From the IMG/VR virus record IMGVR_UViG_3300037400_004242: DNA of 64,000 nt; one strand, 5' to 3'. This document shows positions 9,257 to 33,180 of the stretch, piece by piece. This stretch comes from a virus (lineage: Duplodnaviria; Caudoviricetes). The notes under the pieces were generated by a model. It saw nothing but the letters and a program-made list of their open reading frames with translations. It was not told the origin of the DNA and ran no database searches. The position numbers and the translations under genes were made by a program. Every line of letters begins with the position of its first letter. The stretch's first letter is position 1.

Positions 9257-9264
9257 CGTAGAGT

Positions 9265-9945
9265 ATGGCATATGATGCAACAAGACACTTCAACAACTTT
9301 GGTCAGAATACTTCTACAAACACTCACCGTGCAACGCGAAATGATATAAGAACTGCTAACAATACAATGAAGCCTGTGTCTTCATTTGATAACTCGTTAG
9401 CAACAACATCTACAAATATTTTCGTTTATTCAAACGGTTGTATCGTAGGTATGATTCAAAGTTTTAATATAAGTGAGCAAAGACAGGTTAATAAATTACA
9501 GGCAATCGGTTGGGAAGGTGTTGTGCAAGCCGTCCCAGGAAACACGAATGGTGGAACCCTAAATGTTTCTCGTATTGCTCTTTATGAATCTTCTATTTGG
9601 AACGCTCTTGGTTTAACAACAAATGGTGTTCCATTCAATGAAGTTGGTTCAAAGGTTTATGATTCTACAGCAAGAGATAGTGCTACAGATTGGGATAGTT
9701 CCACAATGGTTCAGGAAGATAGCGCATCGTCAAGAAAGGTTAATACACGTTTAGTATTTAAAACGTTGAAAGACCAAAAAGTTCCACTTGAAATTCAGGT
9801 TAAGACACGTCGTAATGGTAGTGCTGATGAATATTATGTGGAAACTTATATTGACTGTTGGCTAGCATCTTATTCTAAATCATATACAGTTCAGAACATA
9901 ACTGTTGCAGAGACAGCCCAGATTTCGTATGCAGATGTTTATTAA
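9265..9945 (+). CDS. Tail tube-like protein (paralog 2)
   Basis: Aligns with paralog 1 (STNI.VYSN, VPGNTNGG, FKTLK.Q.VPLE.Q.KT, ETY.DCWL.SYSK). Confidence 0.8.
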   Translation: MAYDATRHFNNFGQNTSTNTHRATRNDIRTANNTMKPVSSFDNSLATTSTNIFVYSNGCIVGMIQSFNISEQRQVNKLQAIGWEGVVQAVPGNTNGGTLNVSRIALYESSIWNALGLTTNGVPFNEVGSKVYDSTARDSATDWDSSTMVQEDSASSRKVNTRLVFKTLKDQKVPLEIQVKTRRNGSADEYYVETYIDCWLASYSKSYTVQNITVAETAQISYADVY

Positions 9946-14653: not shown

Positions 14654-17600
14654 TTGGCAGATGAAGTAAAAAGTAATAATTTAGATGTGACACAAACTGG
14701 TTTTAAGTTAATAGCTAAAACTGGTGCAAAATTAGAGAATGATACAGGAACTAATACATTACAAAATTCTCTAGAAGATAGTAGTGCAAAAAAGGCAGTC
14801 GAAGAGTTTAATAAATTAACAAGTTCTGCAAAGCCGATAAAAGAAGAAATAGATAAATTAATTGAAGCAATTAGCAATCAAAATATTGAAGGAATTCAAC
14901 AATTTTTAACAGAATTGCAACAAAATGCAACAACGTTGCAAAGTGCAATTGAATCAGGTAGTGTGGGTGATAATTCTACTATTTCGAGTTTAACATCACA
15001 ACTTTCTGAAATTCAAAAGGCTTCCACGCAGATTCAATCAGAGATTAATGGGATACAAGAAAAATATCAAACAGCATTTAATAATGTAGGCGAAGCATTT
15101 GCAAAACAAATTGGGGATGCGATGACAGGAGTATCGCAAACGATTGAACAAACATCTTCAAAAGTAAAAGAGTTTGCAGGTGCTTTAAATGAAATTAGTG
15201 TAAAAACAGGAGATATGCAACAAGAAGCGCAAAAAACAATTGATGCTTCTAAGCAAGTTCAACAAGCAATTTCAGAAGCCTATAAAGCACAAGAAGAAGC
15301 TATTAAAAAAGGAAATGTGTTAGCTTCTAAAACAGAAGAAACACAAGAAGTTATTGATGCTGAAATCGAACAAATCATTCAAGATATTAACAATCAAACA
15401 GGCGCATTTAAACAAATTGGTGATGAAATAAAACAAATGAGCGAAACACTTGCAGGAGAAGTAAGTGCGGAGCTAGAGAAAAATCTAGAACAATTACAAT
15501 TAGGGGTAACAGATGCACAAAAGAACGGCGAAGATGTAAGTGCAGATATAATTGTAAATCAGTTGCTAGAAAATTTTACATCAAAATTACAAATGGTAAA
15601 TGACATTAAAGCAAAGGATGACGGGAGCAACGTAGAAGTCATTCGTTCTTTAAGAGATTTTACAAATCAAATTCAAGAAAGTTTTTCTAATTCAATTCGT
15701 CAGAAGATTGATGTTATTCAGGAATATGCAAAAAGTGCTAATGTAGATAATAAAGAATTAGAAAGTGGAATTTTAAGTTTAAATGGATTATTAACAGAGA
15801 TAGAAGAACGTACACAAAGTACGCTTACAACGAATGAAAACGCTTTTAAGACGGCTTTGATAAATGCTGTGAATAATTATAGTCAACAGCAAAAAGAAGC
15901 CGCTACACCGGGAACCAAGAGCTATAATCGGGCTAGTGAATTATTGGCAAATAAGAGTTTAAGTGCGATTAACTATGATGATATTGCCAATGGTGCAAAT
16001 GATGCTTTAATTAATCTAGAATATTCTCGTGGAAAGAATAATCCTTGGTATCAATATGTTACAACAGGAAATTTACTTGGTAATAAAACAGATTTAGCAA
16101 ACAATTTAAGGAATGTACAACGTCATGGTGTTATTGCACAATCTGTAATTCCAAATGCAATTGAAACTCTTAGTAAGAGTGGATTAAGTAATAAAGAAAA
16201 AGCAGAAAATATTGGAAAACTTGCAGGAGCAAATTTATCAGTAAGTGATTCTATTAAACAAACTGCAAAAGGTATGAATTTATCAAGCGGTGGTGGTAAG
16301 AATCTTACAGAAGAAGATAAAAAAGTTTTTGAAGCGTTCCAAAAACAATTAAATAGTGCATTAGATAATTTAACTCGTACTATTAATGCGATTGAAGATT
16401 TAGACCCTGAAAATAAAACATTAGGAAAATTAAAAGAAGAACAGAAAGCGTTATTAGATTTAAAAAATCAAGCAGATAAAGCGAAAGATAGTTCATCAGC
16501 ATTGTCTAATGCCTTTTCAACAATTTGGAAAGGATTAGGAAAACTGAAAAACCTGTTAGCAGGTGGATTAGGTATGATGGGCTTAGGCGCACTTCTTTCT
16601 CCAATGCAAATGATTAATAAAGCTATTGGCTTTGAGGTAGAAGAAGGAAAAAGAAGATATGGCACAGCGATTACAGATTATTCAATGGGAGCAAGTTTAA
16701 ACCGTGGAAGAATCTATGATATTGCTCGTGTAAAGCCTTATGAGTATTTTAGATTATCGCAAGGTATGATAAAGGATGAAGAATATCTTAATTCTTATCG
16801 TACTATGGCTCAGGGCGTAGGAGGACATTACGGCTCAAATCCTGAAGCGGCGGCAAATGATATGCAAAGGATTACAGAAAATACTTTTGCATTTGGTCGT
16901 GTGAATGGATTAAGTGATTCTTCTATTGCAGGATTCATGAAAGCGACGTATAAAGATACTCGAATGTCTGCGGATGAAGCAAGTGCGGCATTAGTAGAAG
17001 TAGCACAAGCCGCTCAGTCAGCAGGTGTCCCTGTTGAAAAATATGTTAATACTATTACAAGTCTGTCACAACAGTTAATAAACCAAGGTGTAGGATTTGA
17101 ACAAGTAAAATCTTCTATGAATGGTTTAGTAACAAGGCGTGGATTGCGTGTTGAAGATGCTTCAAGTTTGTTGCAAAGTCAAGCGAGAGCAAATGAAAAT
17201 ATGGCAAGAGACTTGAATGGTAGTGCATTTTGGGGAATGATGTCAGGTCAAGGTCGTGACCCAATGAGTTTGATTGCAAGTGGTTATGACGCTTACGATG
17301 CAAAAACGGGTCAGCCGAAAGATGGCTATTTCCAAATGATGGCACAAAGAGTTATGTCAGAAGCTGGAACGATGGGCATGATTGGCGGTAATGCTATGGG
17401 CGGCGTCATGTTCATGGAATCTTTAATGCAACGTGGCTATACTCGTAAAGATGCTTCTATGATTGAAGATGCTCGTGAAAAGGGTGATGTTGGACTTGTT
17501 GCTGAACTTCTGAAAAAAGCAGAAGAACATAAAGATGGTGGTATTAATTCTTTAGCAAGTGCTATTGATGATGCAAAAGCAAAATTACAAGAAGCAGGTA

Positions 17601-20578
17601 ATCAAGTTTCTATTTTTCAAAAATTACAAGTAGATTTAGAAAGTGCTCAAAAGAAAATTGGTCAAGCAATTAGTGATTATTTGTCAGGCCCTCTCGCTTT
17701 ATTTAGACAAGGATTTGAAAAAGTTCTTGATACAATTGTAAAATATAGTGGAAAATTAATTGATGCAATTTCTGAATTTATTGGAGGAATGACAGGAAAA
17801 GGAGATTCGTCTCTTGCAAAAGCAGGAGCTTTTGTAGCGAATAATGCTGAATATGTATGGAAGAATCCTGGTCATGCTTTAGCATATACTGCCGCAGGAG
17901 TAGCTGGTTTAGGTGGCTTATATTTAGCTGGTCGTAAAGGATTAGGTGCGGCATCTGCTAAATTGTTTAAAAATTCAGGACCAAAAGGAACTAGTAATAT
18001 AGGCAAAACTATTACAAGCCTTGGAAGTAAAGGTAGAACAGGTGCTGTTTTGGCTGGTGCTGGATTAGCCGCATTAGCAGGAGGTTTTGCTCTTTCAACT
18101 TTAGTTAGTATGTTTACCAATGGTAGTGCTACAATTCGTGCGAATAATTCTGAAGCAGAAGAAGATAAAACAGCAGGAATGGCAGAAGCTAATATGTTAG
18201 CACAACCTCCTTCAAATCCAGGTTTAAGTGAAAGTAATTCTCCTGCAAGTAGTGGAGAAAGTGCTGTAGAACAATCTACAAGTACAGAAAGTAATACAGA
18301 AGAAGTTCCGAATGAAAACGGAGCTACTTATGGAGAAGGATATACAGAAGAATATAGTCAAATAGATTCTAATTTAGAAGATAAAAAAGGAGAATACAAT
18401 GAAAGTTTAAGTAATGCTGAATTTTTAAATGAATCTGTTAAAGAAATGTATGGCGATGCTATTGAAAATCAGCCATTATATGATGATAGTAAATATCAAG
18501 AACAACAGAAAAATGAAGAATCTAATAATGTTAGTAATGATATATTAGCGGCTTCTGTTGTTGGAACTTCTGCATTAGGATATGCAGGATATAAATATAA
18601 AAATAGAAATGCACAGCCTGGAGTGAAATCATCTTTTAAAAATGCATCAAAATTTGGAAAAGTTGGGAGAATTTTAGGCGGTGTTGGTAGTTTAGCTTAT
18701 TTTGGAGTTCAAGGCTATCAAGAATTTTTCGGAGAAAATGCAAATAAATATACAGGTGCACAACATATTGGTAGATTTGGTATTGATTTAGCAACAGGAT
18801 TAGCTGGAGCGTCATTAGGTGCTAAAGCTGGTGGTGCTATTGGAGCGGCATTTGGTGGAATTGGTGCTGTGCCTGGTGCTCTTTTAGGTGGTGTTGTAGG
18901 TGGACTTGCTGGTGGTGTAGCAAGTGATGTAATTAAAAATTCTTCATTAGGTAAAAAGTTTGGATTAGCAGATGTAGATGATGTTCGTGAAGCGCATGAT
19001 AAATATCAAAGTCGCGTAAAGCAATCAGAAAGTATTTATGGTGATGCAACAAAAAGTATTGTAAGTTCTAATGATGCAAGGACAAAAGCCGCAGAGCAAG
19101 CATTAAATTTGCATGGAATGAAATTGGAAGATTTAACAAATGACCAAGAACAATATATGAACGATGTTTATGCAGATTTAAAAGCGCATGGACTAGAAGA
19201 AAGCGTAGCGGCATTTATAGCGGCATTGTCCACAGCAGGTGTTGCTACACAGCAAAATAATGATGGTAAATTTGCATTAGAAAATGATAAAGATGTTACT
19301 GCAAAAGCTATGGATAAATTATTTCGTATTGAATCTAATAGTGCTTTAGGTTCTGAATATCCTGATACAAATGATTTTTTTCATGGAAACGATACAGATA
19401 ATCATAAAGGTGACCATAATAATTTATTTGCTTTAGATGTTGGTCGTAAATGGTTGCCATCAGAATCAATGTCATATGATGATAAAATGGCATTAGGTAA
19501 TGAGATTGCTACTGCCGCAAATTATGCGGCATCAAATCCAGATTCTGATATGTCTGGATTATTTAAAAGAATTTTCCCAGATGCTGGTACAGGAACAGCT
19601 TCAAGTATTGGAAAAGCTATAGAAAAATCATGGAATGATATAGATAAAGATGAAGCATCTGTAACAAATTGGTTGCAAGATAAGGCGGGTAAAATTTCAT
19701 ATTTTGCAAAAGAGGATAATAAAGACGATTTAACTAAAATTGCTGGAAAGATTGCAGAAGAAAAAGTTAATGGAGAAACTGCAACTTCGCATCCTGAGCA
19801 GGTTGCAAGTCAGTATCAATTAGGTCCTACTGTATCACAACAACAAGAAAATGCTAAGTCGCAACAACAAAGTACTCCAGCGCAAGAAAAAATGACACCT
19901 GAAAGTGTTGCAAAGAAAAATATGGAAAATTATAAAAATATGGAAGAACAAATTTCAGGTTTAGCTGGAATAAAAGATAGAGCATTATGGGCAGATAATA
20001 TAGCAACAGGTCAATTTATTTTTGATGGTACAACAACATTAGGAATGAATGGAAAACATCTTTCTTTAAAAGGAGCTAGAGACTTGTTCCGTATGAATAG
20101 TGGTAGAAGAACAAAAGATATGTATTCTTCTACATTACAAGGTTATGCTGATGGTGAAGGTAATCATCTTGAAGGTGCAGGTGTTAAAGATATTCGTGAA
20201 AATATGGAAAAGAAATATCTAAAACCTGCAAGAACAGTTTTTGCGGATGGAGAGCATTTTAAAGGAACTGCTGATGTCACAAATGCATTAGAGACAATGC
20301 ATCAGCAACAAAAGAAATATCAAGAGCAACAAGAATCAACATATGCACAAAATAAAGAAAATCAAGAAAAAGCAAAACATGAACAAGATGAAAAGAATAA
20401 CAATAATGCAGAAAGTGCATCAATACAAATTGTTGTTATGGGTTCTGGTGGAGATAAACAAACAGCAAAAACTGCTCAGGAAATTGCGCAAAGTGCTCAA
20501 AGAGCAAACCAAGAAGCAGATAGATTAAGAGAAGAGTATAAAGCTAAATTTGAATCAGAAAATATGACAAATACTTAA
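14654..20578 (+). CDS. Tape measure protein paralog A (no recognisable hydrolase; glycine-zipper segments)
   Basis: 1974 aa; coiled-coil N-terminus, helical TMP-like core, hydrophobic Gly/Ala segments (GASLGAKAGGAIGAAFGGIGAVPGALLGG); after chaperone; AAGGAGG RBS, TTG start. Confidence 0.8.
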   Translation: MADEVKSNNLDVTQTGFKLIAKTGAKLENDTGTNTLQNSLEDSSAKKAVEEFNKLTSSAKPIKEEIDKLIEAISNQNIEGIQQFLTELQQNATTLQSAIESGSVGDNSTISSLTSQLSEIQKASTQIQSEINGIQEKYQTAFNNVGEAFAKQIGDAMTGVSQTIEQTSSKVKEFAGALNEISVKTGDMQQEAQKTIDASKQVQQAISEAYKAQEEAIKKGNVLASKTEETQEVIDAEIEQIIQDINNQTGAFKQIGDEIKQMSETLAGEVSAELEKNLEQLQLGVTDAQKNGEDVSADIIVNQLLENFTSKLQMVNDIKAKDDGSNVEVIRSLRDFTNQIQESFSNSIRQKIDVIQEYAKSANVDNKELESGILSLNGLLTEIEERTQSTLTTNENAFKTALINAVNNYSQQQKEAATPGTKSYNRASELLANKSLSAINYDDIANGANDALINLEYSRGKNNPWYQYVTTGNLLGNKTDLANNLRNVQRHGVIAQSVIPNAIETLSKSGLSNKEKAENIGKLAGANLSVSDSIKQTAKGMNLSSGGGKNLTEEDKKVFEAFQKQLNSALDNLTRTINAIEDLDPENKTLGKLKEEQKALLDLKNQADKAKDSSSALSNAFSTIWKGLGKLKNLLAGGLGMMGLGALLSPMQMINKAIGFEVEEGKRRYGTAITDYSMGASLNRGRIYDIARVKPYEYFRLSQGMIKDEEYLNSYRTMAQGVGGHYGSNPEAAANDMQRITENTFAFGRVNGLSDSSIAGFMKATYKDTRMSADEASAALVEVAQAAQSAGVPVEKYVNTITSLSQQLINQGVGFEQVKSSMNGLVTRRGLRVEDASSLLQSQARANENMARDLNGSAFWGMMSGQGRDPMSLIASGYDAYDAKTGQPKDGYFQMMAQRVMSEAGTMGMIGGNAMGGVMFMESLMQRGYTRKDASMIEDAREKGDVGLVAELLKKAEEHKDGGINSLASAIDDAKAKLQEAGNQVSIFQKLQVDLESAQKKIGQAISDYLSGPLALFRQGFEKVLDTIVKYSGKLIDAISEFIGGMTGKGDSSLAKAGAFVANNAEYVWKNPGHALAYTAAGVAGLGGLYLAGRKGLGAASAKLFKNSGPKGTSNIGKTITSLGSKGRTGAVLAGAGLAALAGGFALSTLVSMFTNGSATIRANNSEAEEDKTAGMAEANMLAQPPSNPGLSESNSPASSGESAVEQSTSTESNTEEVPNENGATYGEGYTEEYSQIDSNLEDKKGEYNESLSNAEFLNESVKEMYGDAIENQPLYDDSKYQEQQKNEESNNVSNDILAASVVGTSALGYAGYKYKNRNAQPGVKSSFKNASKFGKVGRILGGVGSLAYFGVQGYQEFFGENANKYTGAQHIGRFGIDLATGLAGASLGAKAGGAIGAAFGGIGAVPGALLGGVVGGLAGGVASDVIKNSSLGKKFGLADVDDVREAHDKYQSRVKQSESIYGDATKSIVSSNDARTKAAEQALNLHGMKLEDLTNDQEQYMNDVYADLKAHGLEESVAAFIAALSTAGVATQQNNDGKFALENDKDVTAKAMDKLFRIESNSALGSEYPDTNDFFHGNDTDNHKGDHNNLFALDVGRKWLPSESMSYDDKMALGNEIATAANYAASNPDSDMSGLFKRIFPDAGTGTASSIGKAIEKSWNDIDKDEASVTNWLQDKAGKISYFAKEDNKDDLTKIAGKIAEEKVNGETATSHPEQVASQYQLGPTVSQQQENAKSQQQSTPAQEKMTPESVAKKNMENYKNMEEQISGLAGIKDRALWADNIATGQFIFDGTTTLGMNGKHLSLKGARDLFRMNSGRRTKDMYSSTLQGYADGEGNHLEGAGVKDIRENMEKKYLKPARTVFADGEHFKGTADVTNALETMHQQQKKYQEQQESTYAQNKENQEKAKHEQDEKNNNNAESASIQIVVMGSGGDKQTAKTAQEIAQSAQRANQEADRLREEYKAKFESENMTNT

Positions 20579-20596
20579 TGATTGAGGAGATTCGTT

Positions 20597-23500
20597 ATGG
20601 AGAAAGAGAAAAATATTAGTTTGACAGGAAATTTTGATAAATCAATAAAAGAACTAGATTCTAATATAACGAATCTTATTAATCAATTTTTTGGTGTATG
20701 GAATAAGATTGATAATAGTATTTCGGATTCATCTAGTGTCGTTGCAAATTATTTAAATACATTATCTGAAATAAAAAGTCATTTAGATGATATTCAAAGT
20801 CAACAAGTAAAAAACACTTTGGCTAAAAATGTTCAAACACAAAAAGAATTATTAGATGCTTTTTTAAAAACAAAAGCAGAACTTGATAATTTCGTGCATG
20901 GATTTCAAAAGTCTGCGGATGAAACTATAAAGAAAGAAATTACAATTAAATTAAATTTTAATCAATTTAATATTTTAAATAATTTATTAAAAATATTAAA
21001 TAACAATCAATTAAATGCAAAAGAAATAAAAATATCAAATCAATTTCAACTTGTAAATGAAAATAACTTGGCTACAGTTTTATCTTCTGCACAATCGCAA
21101 GTTCCTAATATTCCTGATAAAACAGAATTGGCTGTACAATCTATTCAAAATGTACTAAACATTATGTTGCAAAATCATTATAGTTTAGCTATGATTGCAA
21201 GCGGTTTGAGAGAAGATGTACAAAAAGCATCCAATATAAGGGATATAAAACAAACACAAATTTTAGCTGAAGTTTTAACAGATTTAAAAGAAACGACATT
21301 TAATCCTGACGAAGAAGTACGAAATAATAAAAAAATAGAAGATTTAAAAGAACAAATAGATAAGAGCTTAAAAGAAATTATTGATATTCGTAAAAATTCA
21401 ATAGATTATTCAGCTACAGATTCTATTAATAAAGATTGTGATGAAATTCTTCGTATGCTTGCAACTATGAAAGCGAATATAGATGTTGCAGAGCAAGAAC
21501 TTTATAAAAAAGATGAAGACAGAACTTTAAGTACGGTTGACGTATATCAGTTACTTCATTTAAATTTGATAAATACTTATAGTCAACAAGCAGATACGAT
21601 TCAAAAAAAGATAGAAAATTTATCCAAAAGTATTCATGAATCTGTTGCAGAATCATTAAAAGAAAAACATAAACAGTTAGATGACCCAGAATCTTTTACT
21701 TATAAACAAACAGAAAATGAATTACAATATCGAAGAATATCTGATATAAAAAATGTTTTGCCAAAAAATGATTCTTTAAATAAAGTAATTACATCATTAC
21801 GTATGAATCCTGATAAAATGAATAAATTAACGTTTATGTCAAATCAAGATTTTGGTAAACAAGTAAACGATGTTCGTAGAAATAATGCAGTTTTTGCAGA
21901 CAAAACGAAAAAGTTTTTAGATGAAAACGTTTCAACTAATTTAAACCATAATCAAATTTCTTTGGCTGAAATTACAGGAACGGCACAGGTTGTTGGTGAT
22001 TCTAATTTAAAATTAGCAAGGACAATTAATACAAATACAAATCCATTAATGTATAATCTTTTTGCTTCAAAATCCGAAAAAGAACAATTAGACTTAATAA
22101 AAAATAATATTGAAGATACAGTAAAAATGATGAATCGTATATTGTTATCTTATAGTGAATTAGAAGAAAAACCTGATTCTTATTATTCTTTAAGAAAACA
22201 AAAAGATGCATTACAAGATGAATTAACAAAAATTAATAATTTACAAAATTCTTTTAGTGAATTGGCAAGTGTATTACGATTAGCAAATTTAGCTCGTAAA
22301 AAAATCATGGGAATGTTAGCAGGTGGGTTAACATTTTTAGGAATTGGAGCTATTTTACATCCAATGCAATTATTGTCTCAATTTATAGAATCATCAAAAC
22401 AATTAGGACAATCAAGTTATCAAGTTGCGATGACAGATTTTTCTACAGGAGCGTCTATTGATAGAGGAAACATACATGATTTAGCTTTTCAAACTCCTGA
22501 TTATTATTTTGGTTTAACGTATGGACAAATTGGGATGCAAGAAGTTCCTAATTTACATCGTTCTCTTACAAGAATAATTGGTGGACAATTTGGTAATTCT
22601 CCTTCTCAAAATCGTAGTGATATGGCATATTTTGCAAAAAATATGACAGCAGATAAAAATTTGTTAGGTATAAGTGATGGAACGATAGGAGAAAATTTAA
22701 AGATTTTTTATCGTGATTTGGGAATGTCTGCGCAAGAAGCCGCTACGTATTTAAGAAGATTAGAATCATATGCGATGATGTCTCAAATTCCTATGGAAAA
22801 TTTCTTAGGCACAATTTCAGGAATGTCTGAGAGTTTACGAAATTTAGGTGTTCATACTAAGGTATTTGTTAATGCGTTAACATCTATGGTTAATTTCCAT
22901 AATATGCGTATTGAAGATGCTCGTAATATGATTCAAGAAACTGCTCAAAATGCAAATAGTTTTTCAAGTGATTGGGCAAGAAATATCTTTTGGGGAATTC
23001 AACGTGCTAAAAAAGGTGAAGACCCATTTAAAGTTTTGTTAAGAGGATATAAATCTCATGATAGAAATGGGAATGTAATACCTGAGTATTATGATTCATT
23101 AGTTGATAGAATGTTTGATGAAGCGAAATATTTTGGTACTCGTTGGGGTGGAAATCCAAACAATTCTTTAAATACAGTAGATATGTATAGTCGTTTATTA
23201 GAAGATGGGTATACATTAAAGCAAGCAAATACAATTGTACATTTACATCAGGAAGGAAAATTAGACGAATTAAAAGAAAAATTAAAAGGATATGATGAAT
23301 TAAATCAGAATCCTATGGCTCCTGCAAATACAACGAAAGAATATGCGGCAGAATTGAAAAAAGCTGGAAGTCAATTAAGTGAATTTACAAAGATTCAATC
23401 AGACTTAACTCGTGCAATTAATCAAATTGCAGATAAATTCAATAATGAATTAGGACCACAATTGTCAAAAGGATTGCCATTGATTGAAGCTATTTTAGCT

Positions 23501-26500
23501 AAATATGTGGCAGGAATGGAAGCAATTATAAAACGTATTGGTGGATTCTTAAGTTCTCCAATTGGGAAATGGTATTTAAATAATTTTGCAAATAATCCAA
23601 TTGAAACAATTGCAGGAACAGTAGCCGCAGGAACTTTAGCAAGATATGGTATGAAAAATTTGACTAAAGCAGGATTTAATTCATTAAAAGGGATGATTAC
23701 AGGAAAACCAACAAAATCACCTATTAATATTGGAGGAAAATATGGGAAAATAATTGCAGGTGGTGCAATATTAGGTACTGCTTTGTTGGGTGCTTTTGTA
23801 GGTACAGCAAATGCAAATGCGATGTACGATGATAGTGAAAATGATATTAAAGATAAAAATGATGAGCAAAAGGCACTATTGGTATCCATGTTTCAAACTG
23901 GGCAAGCAAGTGCTACTATTATTGGTAATTTAGCAACGAATATTCGTGATAATCATTTAGGAAAAATCGCAGGAATTTTAGTGGCAGGAGGTTTTGTATC
24001 TATTGCTTCTGCTTTTATTGCTAGATTTATTTCTAAACGAAATCAAGGAAAATTTTTAAGTAAATTAAGTAAATATAAACATCGTGATTTATTAGAAGAA
24101 TTAGCAAAACCAAAAGAATTGAGTAAAAAAGCAAAGAAAAATTTAGCTAGGTATGATTTAAAAAAGAAAAAATCCAAAAAGATTCGTACTTATTTAAAGA
24201 AAAGAGCACAATGGTTGGCTGATGTTAAGGCTTATAATGAACGAATTAAAGTAAATCGTAGAATTTCAAAGCACAATAAAAAAATGCATGAAATAAAAAT
24301 TCAAAAAATAAAACAAATGAGGATGAAAGCTCAAAATCATTTAAGCTGGATTCGTAAATTAAAAATTGGTGGTGGAGTATTAGCCGTCGCAGGTGCGATT
24401 ATATTTGGATTAGATGCATACTTTAATCGTGAGAAGAATCAAGAAGAACAAGAAGATAAGCAAAGTGAATCACAAGGGGATTTAATAAATCCACAACCAT
24501 TTGTTCAAAAATCAAATCAAAGTATTGCAGATTATAACAAAAGAGTAGATGAACAAAATCAAGAAATACAAAAAGAAAATTTAGCAAATCAAGTTAAAGA
24601 ACAAAATCAAAACTCAAATCAAGATAGTTTAGCAAAAAATCCTCCAACAAAACAACAAACAGATAAACAACAAAAAGAAGCAAGTAGAAATGGTGCTGAT
24701 TCACAAGCCCAATCTGCACAATATGCTGAAGTTGTTAAAAATACAAAACAACAAATAGAAGCATATCAAAAAGAGAAAGAAATGGAACAGCAGTATTTGA
24801 CTTATGACAAAACTGCGCAAGATATTTCTTTGTCGAATAATAATTTTGTTAATAAAAATGCTTCTAATTTATCGAATCATATTGAAGGATGGAAGAAAAC
24901 AGGTGAACATGAAAAGAGAATTTGGGGAGATAGCTATCGACAATTTTTAGAAATCTATGGAAATGAAGCTAAAGCATTGCAAATGGCGGCACAAGCATTA
25001 GCATCTGCTCGTGTAGCAGGTGGTGGTGGAATAAATGGTGCTCCACAATCATTTGTTGAATATGGTACTAAAATGTTACAAAGTGCTCCACCAGAAATAC
25101 GTCAAATGATAAAAAATGCGCATGATAAATATCCAAATGTTCCTGAATATGTTATTGCGGCAATTGCCGCACATGAAAGCGGATTTCAAAATGTAATGAA
25201 TGGTCAAGGCTCAGGTGCAACAGGTATGATGCAAATAATGCCTGGTACAGCCGCAGGAGTTGGATACGGAGACGAAGATAGATTGCTTCATGACCCACAA
25301 TATAATTTAATGGCAGGTACAGCATATGTAAGCACTTTAGCATCTAATTATGATTCATGGGCAAAAACTATATCTGCATATAGTTTAGGCGGTGGAGCGA
25401 TTAATGGTTTAATTAAAAAATATGGAAACGATTGGTATAGACATTTGGAAGAAGCGGATGAAGCGTCAGGTGTACCTGGTCAAACAACAAATTATTTAAA
25501 AAGTTTGGGATTAATGGATGGAAATGGAAATTTAAAACCTGAAAATGCAAGTTCCGTATCTATATCTCCTAGTGTGTCTAGTCCTCCAGGCGCAGAATAT
25601 AGTGGGAATTTAGGTGTTGATTTTTCTCATTTAAGATGGAGTGGATTCGTAGCAGATAAAGGATGGGACCATAGTTATGATGCACATGCAAATTCTGCAC
25701 AATATATTGCCATGGATATTGGTAGATTAACTCCAAAAGCGAAACAAAGACTAAATTTGTTTACTCAATTATATGCAAAATATAGTGGTGGTGGCACATT
25801 AGAATGGAACGTAGCTACATTAGGGCATGACCCTGGTACGGCACATACTACAGGAAGAAAAATAGATATGGAATTGGGCGGAGTAGATGTAGATGCTATA
25901 ATAAGAGCTGGTAATGAAGCCCATGTTGGTGTAGTTAATGAAGCTGGAACTCATTTTGATATATTGTTAGAAGGAACAGGAGGTTACGAAGGAAAACTTT
26001 TAACACAACAGTTTTCTTGGGATGATGCAAATTCTAATGGTAGTCAAGGTGGCGGTGGTGTAATTCCAACTCTTAATATAAATTTAGATGCTATGAAACC
26101 AAAAACATTAAAAGAACAATGGGACGCAAGTTTAAAAGCGTATAAAATTTCTGTTGGTGAAGGAAAAACTATTAAGGGAAGATATACGCATAATGGATTG
26201 TATTTGGAAGCTGGAAAAAATGCAGAATCGTATAAAGAAGAAGATGAAAAATTAAGAAATATATATAGTAAAGCATATGATATGACAGACGGGCAAATTA
26301 CAACATCAGATAAAGTAAAAGAAAATGTCGCATTTCTTGAATCAATGTATAGAAATGGGCACGAAGAAATGATGTCTATGTTACAAGCGAAAGAAAAGAA
26401 AGCAAAACAGTTAAATAAATTAACAGAAGATTTGAAAGAATATATTTACTATAATGATTTGTTTGAAAATGTAAAGATTGCAGATTCTAGAGCAACATCA

Positions 26501-26503
26501 TGA
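20597..26503 (+). CDS. Tape measure protein paralog B with lytic transglycosylase (SLT) and peptidase M15-like domain
   Basis: AIAAHESG, GATGMMQIMPGTA, NLMAGTAYV, AYSLG (SLT motifs); HTTGRKID...HFDI (M15-like); core homologous to paralog A; GAGGAG RBS favours ATG 20597. Confidence 0.8.
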   Translation: MEKEKNISLTGNFDKSIKELDSNITNLINQFFGVWNKIDNSISDSSSVVANYLNTLSEIKSHLDDIQSQQVKNTLAKNVQTQKELLDAFLKTKAELDNFVHGFQKSADETIKKEITIKLNFNQFNILNNLLKILNNNQLNAKEIKISNQFQLVNENNLATVLSSAQSQVPNIPDKTELAVQSIQNVLNIMLQNHYSLAMIASGLREDVQKASNIRDIKQTQILAEVLTDLKETTFNPDEEVRNNKKIEDLKEQIDKSLKEIIDIRKNSIDYSATDSINKDCDEILRMLATMKANIDVAEQELYKKDEDRTLSTVDVYQLLHLNLINTYSQQADTIQKKIENLSKSIHESVAESLKEKHKQLDDPESFTYKQTENELQYRRISDIKNVLPKNDSLNKVITSLRMNPDKMNKLTFMSNQDFGKQVNDVRRNNAVFADKTKKFLDENVSTNLNHNQISLAEITGTAQVVGDSNLKLARTINTNTNPLMYNLFASKSEKEQLDLIKNNIEDTVKMMNRILLSYSELEEKPDSYYSLRKQKDALQDELTKINNLQNSFSELASVLRLANLARKKIMGMLAGGLTFLGIGAILHPMQLLSQFIESSKQLGQSSYQVAMTDFSTGASIDRGNIHDLAFQTPDYYFGLTYGQIGMQEVPNLHRSLTRIIGGQFGNSPSQNRSDMAYFAKNMTADKNLLGISDGTIGENLKIFYRDLGMSAQEAATYLRRLESYAMMSQIPMENFLGTISGMSESLRNLGVHTKVFVNALTSMVNFHNMRIEDARNMIQETAQNANSFSSDWARNIFWGIQRAKKGEDPFKVLLRGYKSHDRNGNVIPEYYDSLVDRMFDEAKYFGTRWGGNPNNSLNTVDMYSRLLEDGYTLKQANTIVHLHQEGKLDELKEKLKGYDELNQNPMAPANTTKEYAAELKKAGSQLSEFTKIQSDLTRAINQIADKFNNELGPQLSKGLPLIEAILAKYVAGMEAIIKRIGGFLSSPIGKWYLNNFANNPIETIAGTVAAGTLARYGMKNLTKAGFNSLKGMITGKPTKSPINIGGKYGKIIAGGAILGTALLGAFVGTANANAMYDDSENDIKDKNDEQKALLVSMFQTGQASATIIGNLATNIRDNHLGKIAGILVAGGFVSIASAFIARFISKRNQGKFLSKLSKYKHRDLLEELAKPKELSKKAKKNLARYDLKKKKSKKIRTYLKKRAQWLADVKAYNERIKVNRRISKHNKKMHEIKIQKIKQMRMKAQNHLSWIRKLKIGGGVLAVAGAIIFGLDAYFNREKNQEEQEDKQSESQGDLINPQPFVQKSNQSIADYNKRVDEQNQEIQKENLANQVKEQNQNSNQDSLAKNPPTKQQTDKQQKEASRNGADSQAQSAQYAEVVKNTKQQIEAYQKEKEMEQQYLTYDKTAQDISLSNNNFVNKNASNLSNHIEGWKKTGEHEKRIWGDSYRQFLEIYGNEAKALQMAAQALASARVAGGGGINGAPQSFVEYGTKMLQSAPPEIRQMIKNAHDKYPNVPEYVIAAIAAHESGFQNVMNGQGSGATGMMQIMPGTAAGVGYGDEDRLLHDPQYNLMAGTAYVSTLASNYDSWAKTISAYSLGGGAINGLIKKYGNDWYRHLEEADEASGVPGQTTNYLKSLGLMDGNGNLKPENASSVSISPSVSSPPGAEYSGNLGVDFSHLRWSGFVADKGWDHSYDAHANSAQYIAMDIGRLTPKAKQRLNLFTQLYAKYSGGGTLEWNVATLGHDPGTAHTTGRKIDMELGGVDVDAIIRAGNEAHVGVVNEAGTHFDILLEGTGGYEGKLLTQQFSWDDANSNGSQGGGGVIPTLNINLDAMKPKTLKEQWDASLKAYKISVGEGKTIKGRYTHNGLYLEAGKNAESYKEEDEKLRNIYSKAYDMTDGQITTSDKVKENVAFLESMYRNGHEEMMSMLQAKEKKAKQLNKLTEDLKEYIYYNDLFENVKIADSRATS

Positions 26504-26521
26504 TATTTCTAATTGATAATT

Positions 26522-26549
26522 TTATTTTGTAAGTAGAAAATTGTATAAT
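26522..26549 (+). promoter_or_regulatory. TTATTT-N6-TAGA motif plus TATAAT hexamer
   Basis: TTATTTTGTAAGTAGA 26522-26537; TATAAT 26544-26549. Confidence 0.45.
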
Positions 26550-26572
26550 TCTTTTAGAAAGGACTAAATAGA

Positions 26573-27016
26573 ATGGCGAATAAAAATAAAAATGATAAAT
26601 TAATTGCTGAAATGCTTGGAGATTTAATTGACCAAAGCGAAGATACAACTGTTGTAAAGAAATATGGGAAAGAATGGGCGATGCGTCCAATTTCTTCAAG
26701 TGAATATTTAAATGCTTTAAAGGATAGTCAAAATTTAAAGCAAGATGAAATCACTCGTGTATTTGGTATGCAGATTGCAATTTTAAAACGCGGTTTAGTT
26801 TCAGTTAATGGTATTGTGTTAACTGATGAACAAAAAGATAGAATTTTAAATGCAATCAGTCCTGTTGTTCTAAACACTCTTTATAATGAGTTTGAAGAGA
26901 TTCGTCGTAAGAATGATGAAAAGTTAGATAAGATTGAAAATTCGGATTCTGAAGATGAAGAAGAAACAGATGAAGAACAAGTAGAAAAACCAAAGATGAA
27001 CACAATTGATGCGTAA
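26573..27016 (+). CDS. Second tail assembly chaperone
   Basis: WAMRPISSSE...ILKRGLVSVNG...ISPVVLNTLYNEF parallels the N-terminal half of 13676..14632. Confidence 0.7.
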   Translation: MANKNKNDKLIAEMLGDLIDQSEDTTVVKKYGKEWAMRPISSSEYLNALKDSQNLKQDEITRVFGMQIAILKRGLVSVNGIVLTDEQKDRILNAISPVVLNTLYNEFEEIRRKNDEKLDKIENSDSEDEEETDEEQVEKPKMNTIDA

Positions 27017-27018
27017 AT

Positions 27019-27057
27019 AAAAAAGGATGTGTAAAACAATAGACACATCCTTTTTTT
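27019..27057 (+). terminator. Intrinsic terminator
   Basis: aaaaaaggatgtgt / acacatcctttttt. Confidence 0.8.
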
Positions 27058-27099
27058 GTATTTTTTTAATGAGATTAATTTTTTAGGTGGGATTTAATA

Positions 27100-30000
27100 A
27101 TGAGTACAGCAACAGCTAGTATTGATGAACAAAATAAATTAAGCATAATAAAACAACATTTTGATGATATGGCAAAGCTGATTGCTGAAGTTAACAAAAT
27201 CTATAGCTCTGCTGTACAATCAATATCAAAAGATAATGAAAGTTTAAAAAAATTACAAGATGTTATGCATCAATTGGAAAACTTTCAAAAGCAGAAAGAT
27301 GCGATGTTTCAATATTTGGATAATGTAAGGGAAACATTATCGCATCAAGATTTATATCAAATTATTTCAAAACAGCAAACAAGTATTAATATAATTATAT
27401 CTAAAATACAAGCATTACAATATGATGACAATTTAGAAGAAGTCGCATCTAAAATTGAAACATATTCAAATCAGATTACTGAATTAGGTAAAGCAAATGA
27501 ATCTGATGTAAAAAATTTCGATACTCTTGTAGCAGAAGATATAAGAAATATACAAAAGCAATTTCGTGATTTCCGTGAAGCATGTATTAGAATTACAGCA
27601 AAGAAATTAACAGTACAGCAAAAAACACAGGAACAGACAAATGAATTAGAACAAAGAATACAGATGATGCAGGATATTCTTTTGAATCAAAAAAATTCTA
27701 GTCAATCTGCTCGTACTGTAAGTTCTAATTTAACTAGAATGATTAATAAGATTGCAGAAGAAGCGTCTTATTTTAATAAGAAAAAAAGTACTGTTAATTC
27801 AAGGTCTTTATTAACTTTAATTCAAAGATTAAAAAAATATCATGATTCAACAAAGAGAAAACCTCATACGATTGCTAATTTTAGTCAAGAAATTAGTGCC
27901 TTAACAGATATAACAAGTTCCTTGCTTGAAGAAGAATATCATTCTTTAATGGCAGATATGAAAAATGGAACGGAAGTTACAGCAGAACAAATTCAACATT
28001 TTAATGATATTTTTACAAAAACATTAGATAAACAGGGGAAGTTTTTAACTGGGAAATCTTTTGATATATTTGTTAAATATATGCCAAAATTAAAAGGCGA
28101 ACATGAAAGGATTTTAACGTCTTTTGAAACATTATATTCTTATCCAAAACTTGTAACGAACGCATATATTGATACTTTAGTTAATGAATTAAAACAATAT
28201 CATGAAAATCCACCTGAAGAACAGTATAACGATTATCAATTAAAACATGCAAAAAAAGAGTTAACAGCAAGTAAAAATTTTGATTATACGAATTATTCAT
28301 TAAACATTTTAGCAAATCCAAAATCTTTATATGCAAGTGATGATGTAAAAAATGCATATAAAGATTTTGGAAGAGATTCAGCTATTTATAATGAACAAAT
28401 TCAAACAATTTTAAAAAATGAAGAAATAGGAGCACAAAGAACAGGTCGTAATGTAGATGACTTATTTAAAGAAGATTTTGTGAATGGTAGATTTACTCAA
28501 CCTTTGTTAAATAATAATGATAGATTGCTTAGTTTTGCACAAAAAATTAATAAAAATGATTTAAAAAAGAACGATGTTGGCATATCAAGCGATGTAGCAA
28601 AACAATTGACAGAAGCAATCCATCAAACATATCGACAGATTCAAATCTTATCTCGTTTTGACCCTGATTCTAAATTATTAGAAGCATTAAAACAACAAGC
28701 AAAAGATTTAGAAGAACAACGTGATGATTTAGTAAAAGCAGGAAAAGATGATAAGTTAAAAGGATATGAATCTTTATTTAAATCTTTTAAAGGTGTAAAA
28801 GGATTTTTTGAAAAAGCGTTAGTTATGATGGGATTGGGTGGATTATTTTCTTTCAATAAATGGAAAGATATGATAAAAACCCGTGCAAATGAAAATGGCA
28901 AGATGATGTATAATAATTTTCTTGCAAATACTGCTATGGGGGCTTCCAATCCATATACTAATTCTTATGATTTGGTTTATAATTATGGTCAAAATGTTTT
29001 TAAGGCTTCTTATGGACAAATCGGTTTTGATGCTTATAGTAATATGTATCAAAATTTGTCTAAGAATTTAATGGGCAGAGCAGATAGGAGTGGTTCTGCA
29101 AAAGCACAAGATGCCATGTACTTTACTTATGGTATGACATTACCAGTTAATATGTATGGGATTAGTGCAGGTACTGCTACAAATTTTGCTTCGGAATTTT
29201 ATATGAATAATCGTATGAGTGCGAAAGAGACTATGGATATGTTTTATGATGTTATAGGTCGTGCTCAAAAATCAAATATTCCGATTGAAAAATATATGAG
29301 AACAATTACTACGTTAAGTCATAAATATCGTGAAATTGGATATGGTGGTAAACAAGTTGCGGCAAATATTCAGTTTATGATAGATAATGGTTTGCGTATT
29401 GAAGATGCTCAAAGTTTGCATGGTGAAATTTTAGGTGCTCAAACAAATTTCTCATTAAATAAATCAAATGCTGTATATTCGATATTAGCAGGACAAACGC
29501 ATAATATGTTTACAGCTATGTTTATGAATTTAAAAACGCATGACAGATTTGGAAACCCAATTCAAGGTAGGCAGAAATTAATTGGCGAACAAATGATGGA
29601 AAAACTTCGTATGACAGATGGAATGTTTTCTAATCCTGTCATGAGAAGATTTAATTACATGCAACAATTTATGGGCATGGGCGTTGGATTAAAAAATGCA
29701 AATTTAATGACAGATGCGGCAGTTAAAGGGGACACAAAAAAATTAGGTGCATATTTAGATGGTGCAGAAGAAGAAAAATTAAAGAAAAATATGAATTTAA
29801 AAAAGAGTGTACAAGGATTTGCTAATGAATTAGCAAATGCAAGCGCACTCTTATCAGAAAAACAAAAAAATCAAGCAAATATGATGTCTGCCGCGAATCA
29901 GATTGCGGAACATTTAGGTTCTCACAGAGAAGGTATGCAAGCGTTCTCTAATATGATTGATACAGCAACGCAAAATTTAATTAATGGTTTTGAGAGATTA

Positions 30001-33000
30001 GTACAATTTATTAATAATTTAGATTTAAAAAATATACCTGGTGCATCAAAAGCATTTGCATTTGCTATAGAACATCCATTGTTAGCATTGGGTGGAGCAT
30101 ATGCAGGTTGGAAAGGATTAAAATATGGAGCAAAAAAATTAACACAGCCATTAAGACATTGGAATGATGTTAAAGATAATGCGGCGGCAAATCAGGCAAA
30201 ACAAGCAAAAGCTCCAAAATCTTCAAATAGTTCTGCTTGGAAAACATTAAAAAATGGAATAAGAAGGTTTAAACCGAGAAGTATGGCAAGATTTATTGTA
30301 GTAGGAACAACTGCCGCAATTGGTTTAGCTACAGCTACAACAGAAGCAAGTCCATCGGAACAATATGAAAAAATACAAGAACAAAAACCAAAATCTGAAG
30401 AAGATGAAAAAAAAGCTCCAAATCAATTAGTGAGTATGTTTAAAAGTGGAAAATCAAATGCTACAATATTAACAAAAGATGGAAAACATGTATTAGTTGG
30501 TAATGAACAATACGCTGATGCAAAATCTTGGTTAACTAGAACACAAGTTCAGGTTGCTACAACAATAGCGGGAATTGCCGCAGTTACTGCGATTTCTATT
30601 CTTGCGTATAAAAAATTTTTTAAGGATATAGGACTTAATTTACCTAAGATTCCAAAATCTCCTAAAAAACCTCCTAAATTAAAAATTAAAAAAATGGATT
30701 TTTCTGACTTGAATATTATTAATCAAAAAATTATGAAAAATGATGCAATTGCAAAATCCATTTTAAGACATCAAAGAAAATTAGAAAAACAAAAAAATGC
30801 AAAAAAATTTAAAGAAAAACAACGTCGTTTAAGACAATTAAGAAAAAAACAGTTAAAATCAGGAGAATTGCGTTCTCTTTGGGAATATTTTGGGAATGGA
30901 TTAAAAGAGCTTCCAAAAACAGATTTACTTTTAATGATTGGGCTTCCTATTCTTGAAGAATTTATGAGTAGTGATGAAGAAGATGAAGAATATGGTCAAG
31001 ATGATAGAACTGCGTTGCAAAAAGTTTCCGCAGGTGTTATTGAAGGAACCCCATATTTTTTATTAAGTCAGGCATTGAGCAAAATTCCAAGAGTTGGAGG
31101 ATTTTTATCTATTGCTGTTCCTTTGGCGTTAGATGTAGCAGAACAAAATGGGTATAAAACTCCAATTTCTGATTTAACATATTATGTTAAACAAAGTTTA
31201 GGCGTTCAAAGAAAGATAAATGCATCAAACTTAGATTACTTAAATAATATGGTAAAAGAAAATACCTTAACAGGAGAAGATTTTGATAAATTAATTAAAA
31301 GTGATACTGAACAAGGAAAATATTTTAGAAAATATTTATCAAAAAATGGAATTGAATATTCAAGTTTAAATGAAACAGAAAAAGCTATTTTTAAAGAAGA
31401 AATGGATGCTTTGCTGAATTTAAGATTAGCAACAGTTCAAGTTCTTGCTATGGCAGTACAAGCATTTAAACAAGCTATGGCGGCAAGAGCAAATGCTCAT
31501 AATCTAGGTGGAGGAGGAGATAGTAATAAGCAATTAACAGCAAAAGGAAAAGAATATATTAAAAATCAGCTTGAAGCATTTTTTCCTGGCGATGATAATG
31601 AAATTACAAATCTTGACATGGCGATTCATACATATGTTTATGCACAAGATTTTATTAATGAACATGAAAGTGAGTTTGATTATGATAAAAAAAGTGCCGC
31701 TTATGCAACATTACGTTATTTAAAACATCGTATTGTTGAATTGAATGGCGGTGAGCCATATGAACTCACAGATGAAGATAATGTTGGATTGTTAGGCGAA
31801 AAATCATATATAGTTAGGGACCCATATGATAATCTTACAGGTCGTTCTGGAAGTAGTGAAGAATTGGCTAATAAAATATCTAATCCAACAGGTTATACTG
31901 GATATATTTCTGCAAAAGAAGCTAAGGAAGGTATTGGAAATACTGCTGAAGAAGATGAAGAAATAGCTAAAAGTGCAGGTTTTTATGGCGCGGCTATGGG
32001 AAATTATGAAGATAGTTTAACGAAACAATTAATTAATGATAATAATCCAGAATATGTAGAAAATAAGCCAGTTCAGCAAAATTCAGCTTCACAATCTAGT
32101 TCTTCTTCGCAAGTAGATGGAGATTATGGAGCATATGCAAGTATGGTAGAACAAGCTAAAATGATTTCTCAATTAACTGGTTTACCAACAGATGTAATAT
32201 TTGCGCAATTAGCATTTGAAACAGGTCAAAATCCATCTGATATGGCATATTCTGATAAAATTCATAATTATGGTGGTACTATTGTTGATATGGGGCATGG
32301 AAAAAATGATAGTGGCTTTGGTATTTATGTAAACAATCAAGAGGGCGCAGAAGCATATGTAAAAGGTACAGTCCCAGTTAGAGAACAATTACCACAATTA
32401 AGGGAAGCAATCGCACAAGGCGATTTGAAAAAATATGTACATTTATTAAAATATGGTATGGAAGAGTCTGGTAAAGGAAATTATCAATATTTTACTGGCG
32501 ATGAAAATGAATATTTAAATGGTATAATGTCTTATTTATCATTAGCTCATAAATTTGGGTTAAATGGAGTTACACCTAATGGTACATATGATTTTTCAGC
32601 AGTAATACAACGATTACAGAATTTAAAGCCAAAAACATTAAAAGAACAATGGGATGAAAATATAAGTAATTATAAAACATCTGTTGGTAATGGAAAAACT
32701 ATAAAAGGCGCATATACACATAATGGATTATATCTAGATGCTTCTTTATCTGCTCCTTCTATTGTAGAAGAAAATCAAAAATTAAGAGAAAAATATGCAA
32801 ATGGTTTATATAATGATGATATTACTCCATCTACTGAAAATATTATGACACCTGAAAAATTGGCTGAATTTGAAAAGAAAAAAATGTATTTATCATTTAA
32901 AGCTGTTCAAGAAGAAACAAAAATGATGATAGAAGCAGAAAGAAAAAAATCACAACAGAAGGATGTTATTTTTAGGCGAACATTGGAAGAAGCAAAAGCT

Positions 33001-33180
33001 AAAACAGAAAAAGAATTAAACAAAGAAGAAAAAGATGATAGAGATACAATTGTTTTGAATGTTTTAGCAAAATTAAAAGATGGCCTTAGTTCAAAACAAA
33101 TTAATCAAATATATCAAGAAGTAAATAAGATTTTAACGGATAATGGTTTTGAAGCCGATAGTTATATCACACAAACATAA
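27100..33180 (+). CDS. Tape measure protein paralog C with glucosaminidase (GH73-like) domain
   Basis: 2026 aa; core motifs shared with A and B; GLPTDVIFAQLAFETG...HNYGG...YFT..EY resembles GH73; C-terminal KPKTLKEQWD block shared with B. Confidence 0.75.
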   Translation: MSTATASIDEQNKLSIIKQHFDDMAKLIAEVNKIYSSAVQSISKDNESLKKLQDVMHQLENFQKQKDAMFQYLDNVRETLSHQDLYQIISKQQTSINIIISKIQALQYDDNLEEVASKIETYSNQITELGKANESDVKNFDTLVAEDIRNIQKQFRDFREACIRITAKKLTVQQKTQEQTNELEQRIQMMQDILLNQKNSSQSARTVSSNLTRMINKIAEEASYFNKKKSTVNSRSLLTLIQRLKKYHDSTKRKPHTIANFSQEISALTDITSSLLEEEYHSLMADMKNGTEVTAEQIQHFNDIFTKTLDKQGKFLTGKSFDIFVKYMPKLKGEHERILTSFETLYSYPKLVTNAYIDTLVNELKQYHENPPEEQYNDYQLKHAKKELTASKNFDYTNYSLNILANPKSLYASDDVKNAYKDFGRDSAIYNEQIQTILKNEEIGAQRTGRNVDDLFKEDFVNGRFTQPLLNNNDRLLSFAQKINKNDLKKNDVGISSDVAKQLTEAIHQTYRQIQILSRFDPDSKLLEALKQQAKDLEEQRDDLVKAGKDDKLKGYESLFKSFKGVKGFFEKALVMMGLGGLFSFNKWKDMIKTRANENGKMMYNNFLANTAMGASNPYTNSYDLVYNYGQNVFKASYGQIGFDAYSNMYQNLSKNLMGRADRSGSAKAQDAMYFTYGMTLPVNMYGISAGTATNFASEFYMNNRMSAKETMDMFYDVIGRAQKSNIPIEKYMRTITTLSHKYREIGYGGKQVAANIQFMIDNGLRIEDAQSLHGEILGAQTNFSLNKSNAVYSILAGQTHNMFTAMFMNLKTHDRFGNPIQGRQKLIGEQMMEKLRMTDGMFSNPVMRRFNYMQQFMGMGVGLKNANLMTDAAVKGDTKKLGAYLDGAEEEKLKKNMNLKKSVQGFANELANASALLSEKQKNQANMMSAANQIAEHLGSHREGMQAFSNMIDTATQNLINGFERLVQFINNLDLKNIPGASKAFAFAIEHPLLALGGAYAGWKGLKYGAKKLTQPLRHWNDVKDNAAANQAKQAKAPKSSNSSAWKTLKNGIRRFKPRSMARFIVVGTTAAIGLATATTEASPSEQYEKIQEQKPKSEEDEKKAPNQLVSMFKSGKSNATILTKDGKHVLVGNEQYADAKSWLTRTQVQVATTIAGIAAVTAISILAYKKFFKDIGLNLPKIPKSPKKPPKLKIKKMDFSDLNIINQKIMKNDAIAKSILRHQRKLEKQKNAKKFKEKQRRLRQLRKKQLKSGELRSLWEYFGNGLKELPKTDLLLMIGLPILEEFMSSDEEDEEYGQDDRTALQKVSAGVIEGTPYFLLSQALSKIPRVGGFLSIAVPLALDVAEQNGYKTPISDLTYYVKQSLGVQRKINASNLDYLNNMVKENTLTGEDFDKLIKSDTEQGKYFRKYLSKNGIEYSSLNETEKAIFKEEMDALLNLRLATVQVLAMAVQAFKQAMAARANAHNLGGGGDSNKQLTAKGKEYIKNQLEAFFPGDDNEITNLDMAIHTYVYAQDFINEHESEFDYDKKSAAYATLRYLKHRIVELNGGEPYELTDEDNVGLLGEKSYIVRDPYDNLTGRSGSSEELANKISNPTGYTGYISAKEAKEGIGNTAEEDEEIAKSAGFYGAAMGNYEDSLTKQLINDNNPEYVENKPVQQNSASQSSSSSQVDGDYGAYASMVEQAKMISQLTGLPTDVIFAQLAFETGQNPSDMAYSDKIHNYGGTIVDMGHGKNDSGFGIYVNNQEGAEAYVKGTVPVREQLPQLREAIAQGDLKKYVHLLKYGMEESGKGNYQYFTGDENEYLNGIMSYLSLAHKFGLNGVTPNGTYDFSAVIQRLQNLKPKTLKEQWDENISNYKTSVGNGKTIKGAYTHNGLYLDASLSAPSIVEENQKLREKYANGLYNDDITPSTENIMTPEKLAEFEKKKMYLSFKAVQEETKMMIEAERKKSQQKDVIFRRTLEEAKAKTEKELNKEEKDDRDTIVLNVLAKLKDGLSSKQINQIYQEVNKILTDNGFEADSYITQT

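Follow-up and report, generated by a model that had tools for sequence, protein, structure and literature searches.

Three co-varying tape-measure paralogs in the tail module of a probable phage-G-like jumbo phage: a candidate hetero-oligomeric tail ruler

Why would a tailed phage keep three tape-measure genes in a single tail module? The rule that there is one tape-measure gene, that its product forms one homo-oligomer, and that its length gives the tail length underlies both phage annotation and tail-length prediction. We investigated a 64,000-nucleotide stretch of the virus record IMGVR_UViG_3300037400_004242 (Caudoviricetes; hereafter the window), in which three giant open reading frames (ORFs) occupy the tape-measure position. 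A (14654..20578; 1974 amino acids, aa), B (20582..26503; 1973 aa from a TTG codon) and C (27100..33180; 2026 aa) all lie on the plus strand, as do all tail genes and their parts located below. We consider it likely, with a probability of roughly two in three, that A, B and C share one tail tube as a side-by-side hetero-oligomeric tape measure, which would provide more wall hydrolases without a longer tail.

The original prediction described three ORFs of 1974, ~1968 and 2026 aa with collinear motifs, and this description was accurate. ORF A starts at a TTG codon preceded by a strong Shine–Dalgarno sequence, and ORF B has 1968 aa if started at the ATG at 20597, which also has a clear Shine–Dalgarno sequence upstream. 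Every named motif was found and aligned in order, including LAGG (A635 and B579, with the LVMMGLGG counterpart at C574), MSA.E (A771, B715 and C706), R[VI]EDA (A832, B776 and C766) and LVSMF (A1150, B1100 and C1110). The three proteins were significantly homologous at deep divergence (23–26% identity), both in BLASTP (A vs B, 26% identity across 919 aa, E = 2e-62; A vs C, 23%, E = 4e-39; B vs C, 25%, E = 6e-30) and in profile–profile comparison. The latter extended homology to the flank preceding a conserved core (probability 64–99) and to a mid block (probability 98); in the C-terminal block, it was strong for B–C (99.9) and weak for A. The core itself, of about 450 aa, lies at 16529..17911 in A, where it is PhageMin_Tail-like, 22289..23641 in B and 28780..30120 in C. 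Because the same ordered N-to-C landmarks are all present in each ORF, each is a whole copy and not a fragment. A split tape-measure gene is ruled out, as the ORFs overlap in content rather than covering different ancestral parts.

The ORFs had also been called tandem, which holds for region and strand but not for strict adjacency, as B and C are separated by a 147-aa gene for the tail assembly chaperone G (26573..27016). Contigs from two other studies, mostly at 99% identity, span the junctions between chaperone GT and A, between A and B, and from B through G to C, so the triplet is not an assembly artefact. Contigs from RNA runs cover parts of A, B, C and G; such contigs say nothing on transcription or its levels. 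A readthrough fusion of A and B was rejected: although the two are in frame in the window (TAA then TGA), relatives do not keep this frame. In-frame 12-nucleotide length variants occur within A (19847–19877) among near-identical strains.

All three paralogs matched gp183 of phage G (E = 3e-27 to 6e-11), which was the sole cultured-phage match of the core. Phage G has a 450-nm tail and a single 2893-aa tape measure, gp183, which is a virion protein and carries glucosaminidase and M23 domains on one chain (PMC8570332). The structural model of the A core was all-helical and confident (predicted local distance difference test score, 85.5); its top match in BFVD was again gp183 (E = 2e-12), followed mostly by proteins named tape measures or minor tail proteins. 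The match to PF10145 was weak in family members, and sequence and fold searches of the PDB gave no informative match. As in tape measures, the paralogs are long and consist mostly of helices, contain hydrophobic segments and may carry muralytic domains at the C-terminus. The order of genes is that of phage G, with the sheath first, then two tubes, the chaperones, the tape measure, the gp184-like and gp185-like genes and the baseplate. Judged from sequence, fold and gene order, A, B and C are tape-measure proteins, which would be located in the virion. Three retained paralogs depart from the norm of one tape-measure gene per tail module with a homo-oligomeric product.

A conserved triplet had been expected in related large phages, and the complete layout GT-A-B-G-C was present in 13 genomes, with paralog lengths of 1676–2287 aa and GC contents of about 30 to 56%. 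Near-complete records of 281, 416 and 504 kb contained exactly three matches each, and phage G one. In phylogenetic trees, A, B and C formed one clade each (support 97–99) with broadly congruent inner branching, indicating that the triplication predates the radiation of the lineage and that the copies were retained. The order of duplication differed among trees (B and C were sisters in some, A and B in another). The ratio of nonsynonymous to synonymous substitution rates (dN/dS) was 0.17–0.22 for A, B and C in L012/G005, which was the closest pair tested, and about 0.5 in L010/L019, a more distant pair in which dS may be underestimated. All paralogs are full length, intact and under purifying selection. 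Single-copy relatives, which had been named as a possible refutation, do exist: phage G and six others encode one tape measure of 1911–4534 aa. However, all seven fall outside the A/B/C clade, and hence they do not refute the triplet idea. Two-copy relatives were L039 (1997/1855 aa, 32% identical, with G between the copies), G010 (2114/2138 aa, 68% identical) and G023 (4423/4393 aa, 29% identical). Since G010 and G023 were placed outside the A/B/C clade, duplication occurred at least three times in the family.

The observation behind the original prediction, lengths within ~3%, is correct for the window (2.9% spread), but the window is the tightest case in a range of 3–17% over the 13 genomes. 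The further expectation, that lengths co-vary across relatives, was borne out by permutation and by independent contrasts computed on a concatenated tree. The within-genome standard deviation of total length was 66 aa, against 92 aa with paralogs shuffled among genomes (permutation p = 5e-5), and contrasts of total length were correlated for B–C (r = 0.82, p = 6e-4), A–B (r = 0.57, p = 0.04) and A–C (r = 0.53, p = 0.06). We cut the proteins at conserved anchors to locate the length signal. The core was fixed in length (444–462 aa), and the enzyme-bearing segment showed no length co-variation (r = −0.04 to 0.40). The signal lay in a spacer running from the core end to a mid motif (LxxHG-like), which holds the hydrophobic segments and in the window comprises 401 aa in A (17912..19114), 413 aa in B (23642..24880) and 407 aa in C (30121..31341; basic). 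Across genomes, spacer length varied between about 250 and 430 aa, being shorter in L045, where the anchor was unreliable, but lengths were matched within genomes: besides 401/413/407 in the window, we found 409/410/408, 340/341/319, 375/375/371, 385/383/368 and 406/405/434, the worst-matched sets being 324/358/386 and 363/272/253. Spacer contrasts over all genomes gave coefficients of 0.84, 0.76 and 0.97. With anchors placed by hidden Markov models and two basal genomes removed, A–B (r = 0.84, p = 0.002) and B–C (r = 0.85, p = 0.002) remained correlated (permutation p = 5e-5). Identity between paralogous spacers was near background (19–26% vs 16–21% for shuffles), which excludes gene conversion as the cause of the match, and because the lengths of the controls GT and G do not track spacer length, a bias in length across the whole genome was likewise rejected. 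Thus, paralog lengths co-vary across genomes beyond shared ancestry, more weakly for A–C than for A–B and B–C. The independently duplicated pair of G023 differs by 0.7% in length at about twice the usual family length; its copies are barely alignable beyond residue 1150 and share a block at residues 2536 and 2538.

The spacers of A and B also differ in charge at the same place. An acidic stretch in the A spacer (18209–18511) has a net charge of −18, and a basic stretch in the B spacer (23939–24241) one of +20. Among orthologs, the stretch 100–200 residues past the core was acidic in 14 of 15 A proteins (mean −9) and basic in all 14 B proteins (mean +14.5), whereas the in-register stretch was mildly basic in C (+4.4) and near neutral in single copies (−2.4). 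The opposite charges of A and B are compatible with chains lying against each other.

Enzyme cargo, as annotated from domains, is modular among the paralogs. In the window, B carries an SLT lytic transglycosylase domain (25124..25429; E = 7e-19) with the expected catalytic Glu in an HESG motif, and C a glucosaminidase-like domain (32152..32451), which scored below the Pfam cut-off (E = 0.0045–0.025) but was stronger in the C ortholog of L013 (6e-11). No enzyme domain was recognisable in the C-terminal part of A, and Pfam assigned none to this copy; A orthologs in most relatives carry NlpC/P60, CHAP or M23 peptidases. B orthologs carry SLT or phage lysozyme and C orthologs glucosaminidase, SLT or C39, with SLT found on B or on C, depending on the genome. 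Two-copy genomes likewise have differing cargo on their two copies. Beyond the SLT domain, an H-x6-D...H motif in B resembles M15 peptidases, which we regard as a lead only. This possible M15-like domain (25595–26020) is 80% identical to B of L010, compared with ~47% for the cores, suggesting that the region was acquired by a recent module swap. The enzyme region of C (30864–32855) had lower cover in two DNA runs of related strains; these strains may carry another C module, although missing cover proves nothing.

How do these observations bear on co-assembly? A shared tube would account for three full-length paralogs next to one sheath and hub set, the lack of a switch, co-varying rulers, free enzyme segments and opposite in-register charges. 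The sheath, gp184-like and gp185-like genes are each single in copy, and we found no inversion switch, inversion arms or long DNA repeats when we looked for them. Co-assembly in one tail, as originally proposed, is therefore the best-supported inference, whereas a fixed 1:1:1 ratio is not established, given the one- and two-copy relatives and the spread of up to 17%. A single ancestral tape-measure gene was duplicated twice long ago. A, B and C would be loaded next to one another into a shared tube, more or less in register, and there form a hetero-oligomeric ruler some 300 nm long; by the phage G ratio, a chain of 2000 aa corresponds to about 306–315 nm. Chains in contact would force the ruler segments to change length together while leaving the C-terminal cargo free. 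After ejection, the chains would deliver complementary wall-cutting activities from a tail that is no longer than before: a peptidase on A (in most relatives), a transglycosylase or lysozyme on B, and glucosaminidase, SLT or C39 on C. Chaperones G and GT are supplied by separate genes rather than by one frameshifted gene.

Physical contact, register, tail length and stoichiometry are likewise inferred. Solved tape measures are trimers or hexamers along the tube, and their predicted globular domains are unfolded inside it (PMC11329794). As genomes occur with two copies and with three, the simplest guess is a hexamer (3:3 or 2:2:2), and 1:1:1 is possible. A complex prediction of the A and B cores scored 0.29 against a mark of 0.32, was run without controls, and is counted neither way. 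A broader claim is that phage-G-like jumbo phages repeatedly made heteromeric rulers from two or three kinds of specialised subunit, whose spacers are complementary in charge and locked in length and whose enzymes are swappable, and that here every virion has a defined A/B/C composition (1:1:1 or 2:2:2), making this the first heteromeric tape measure. We advance it tentatively, as somewhat less than evenly balanced.

Several results weigh against the shared ruler. The spread of total lengths reaches 13–17% in L013, L044 and L045, and the N-terminal part of A does not co-vary with B or C. Without the basal genomes, the A–C spacer correlation loses significance (r = 0.57, p = 0.08). The spacer was picked post hoc among 24 segment tests; after Bonferroni correction, the all-genome A–B and B–C values survive, but A–C does not. 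The charge pattern was similarly found after looking and may be a single inherited event. A conserved terminator-like hairpin lies between C and the upstream genes, so equal expression of the paralogs is not built in. The two-copy relatives L039, G010 and G023 argue against an obligate 1:1:1 ratio; moreover, both copies of L039 have B/C-type C-termini, so A is not universally needed and such a ratio is not general.

The alternative that survives best, although we consider it unlikely, is that each virion contains a homo-oligomer of only one paralog, giving three particle types with different wall enzymes as a form of bet-hedging. Lengths would then match because every type must suit a single optimal tail length and a single thickness of the host envelope. 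Such a scheme agrees with every paralog being a complete tape measure with all landmarks, with the differing enzymes and with the position of C behind the hairpin, and a shared envelope constraint could make the membrane-adjacent spacer with its hydrophobic segments co-vary. However, in most genomes the net charge of the B ortholog is +9 to +27 per 100 aa, which is awkward for a homo-oligomer, and A bears the opposite charge at the same place. Lengths agree to within 1–3% in several genomes, and to within 0.7% in G023, closer than a loose optimum should require, and no switch was found.

It is improbable, too, that one paralog alone rules tail length, with the other two serving as lysins or channel subunits that are kept elsewhere in the virion (head or baseplate) and join it only after ejection. 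Total lengths differing by up to 17%, with A varying most freely, would be natural under such a division of labour; the co-varying spacer could matter in the ejected complex, and MarsHill offers a precedent in being annotated with "tape measure plus tail lysin" (10.1101/2020.12.14.422802). Yet A, B and C all keep a 500–730-aa N-terminal helical part, the core and the C-terminal block; total length still co-varies (p = 5e-5); and both copies of G023 are about 4400 aa, roughly 2x the usual family length.

Two further explanations are very improbable. Three chains laid end to end, in keeping with the tandem gene order, would measure one tail of about 930 nm by the phage G ratio, and very long tails do occur in other phages. 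However, length matching is not needed in a serial ruler, yet the lengths co-vary; each chain retains both termini; and MarsHill has two candidate tape measures with a tail of only 233 nm (10.1101/2020.12.14.422802). Neutral inheritance, in which equal lengths are left over from duplication without functional meaning, would suit duplicates that start equal, such as the young G010 pair, but lengths have diverged among genomes (1676–2287 aa) in step after phylogenetic correction and at near-background identity, with purifying selection on all copies; the contrasts and the permutation test largely refute it.

The two-copy relative L039 (L039:3458-15568) lies inside the A/B/C clade, and its copies group together. 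A may have been lost, the copies may have been homogenised, or a separate duplication may have taken place; an approximately unbiased test placing its first copy with clade A gave p = 0.058. The copies of G023, a 167-kb IMG/VR record, lie at L128:882-14153 and L129:1217-14398. The phage G ratio implies a tail near 690 nm, and orthologs of both copies have 3400–4400 aa (3676–4423 aa for copy 1 and 3422–4393 aa for copy 2), with genome pairings unverified. In the single 4534-aa tape measure of G021 (L119-L120), the core is at residue 2648; lengthening there is on the N-terminal side, unlike in G023. L044, which sits on a 500-kb contig, and L045 are basal triplet genomes with 54–56% GC, compared with a family otherwise near 30%. 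In G003 (L009, L082/L091; 504 kb), the triplet lies ~90–100 kb from the sheath and tube genes, and the tail module is rearranged.

The chaperone genes were rearranged as well. Lambda-type gpG and gpGT chaperones are made via a programmed −1 frameshift, and in single-copy relatives G and T are still in split frames and the slippery sequence AAAAAAC is retained. In every triplet genome and in L039, GT is an in-frame gene and G a separate one. GT of the window (13676..14632; 318 aa) has lost the slippery site; its N-terminal half resembles phage G gp181 (via orthologs) and its C-terminal half the frameshifted part of gp182. Stand-alone G is a gp181 homolog (E = 2e-7). The derivation of G and GT from one slippery locus was thus rejected here. 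The terminator-like hairpin with its U tract follows G at 27019..27056, and in each of the 15 genomes with the G-between-copies layout, G has a hairpin behind it, mostly with a U tract; promoter-like sites were no more frequent than at chance level. The G-to-GT ratio would now be set by separate expression. G023 also has G plus a longer GT-like ORF. A near-universal frameshift is apparently replaceable by gene duplication.

The remaining tail genes resemble those of phage G. A single-copy sheath gene (6431..8599; best match gp178) is followed by two tail-tube paralogs, homologs of gp179 and gp180 (8633..9945); this pair is also found in single-tape-measure phage G and in all single-copy relatives, and a link between tube duplication and the triplet was rejected for that reason. 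Downstream of C lie single-copy genes for a gp184-like tube-initiator-type protein (33248..35461) and a gp185-like baseplate-region protein (35482..41331). The latter has 1949 aa, compared with 840 in phage G and 1020–1517 in relatives, and has a long Asn/Ser-rich C-terminal extension; sequence comparison rejected it as a fourth tape-measure paralog. Classed from its tail genes, the locus appears to be the contractile-tail module of a phage-G-like jumbo myophage from the cattle gut. Triplet relatives reach 416–504 kb, where phages of that group would have genomes of 400–500 kb. Two HNH-type endonuclease genes (10282–13065) lie between the tube and chaperone genes, an interval that in relatives holds methylases, an intein, a Cas12f/TnpB-like gene or an RNA ligase, and is an insertion hot spot. 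A 98-aa ORF without a Pfam match (13284–13580) is 73% identical to the ORF at the same place in L003. Farther downstream are a free-standing homing endonuclease (53374–54603) and a helicase (59581–62037) that contains a LAGLIDADG domain, which is likely an intein. At least 82% of the sampled words were present in 14 DNA runs, the labelled ones mostly being bovine or other gut metagenomes, and a scan of GTDB genomes for relatives found none. From the kinship with phage G and the hydrolases, the host is probably a Gram-positive gut bacterium.

A heteromeric ruler, if true, would break the first two parts of the rule of one gene, one homo-oligomer and one length, and would show how a phage widens its set of wall-degrading enzymes without lengthening the tail. 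Subunits that can be told apart would make it possible to test the number of chains in the tube, which part of the chain does the measuring, and whether tail length is dictated by the shortest chain or by all of them. Phages with one, two or three copies, whose tape measures have 1700 to 4500 aa, form a natural series that is ready for comparison. A literature search, outside which most subscription papers fell, found no phage with three tape measures, no duplications in this family and no heteromeric tape measure, and the other mentions of "two tape measure" genes that were read proved to concern chaperones. This suggests that a hetero-oligomeric tail ruler with its own wall enzymes on each chain is a design not yet shown for any phage.

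Among known systems, the window has homologs of both the gpG and the gpGT chaperone of lambda-type phages, but in the A/B/C clade and L039 the two parts of GT are fused in frame, and G has a gene of its own that is followed by a terminator-like hairpin. [quoted passage not shown] They are jumbo myophages with multiple tape-measure-like genes and peptidoglycan-degrading domains, as in the window, but have two copies rather than three; in the phage collection, they gave no sequence match to the present family. Diffocin CD1366 and other solved tape measures (PMC11329794) are similarly helical chains in which a predicted globular domain and hydrophobic segments refold after ejection, but they are homo-oligomers from one gene. 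Bacillus (Lysinibacillus) phage G (Donellivirus; tail module gp178–gp189) is closest, with a homologous core (20–27% identity; template modelling score of the fold, 0.56), the same gene order, two tube paralogs, G/T chaperones and C-terminal wall hydrolases. Where phage G has one gene of 2893 aa and a frameshifted G/GT pair, the window has three genes of ~2000 aa with the enzymes spread among them, and G and GT as separate genes.

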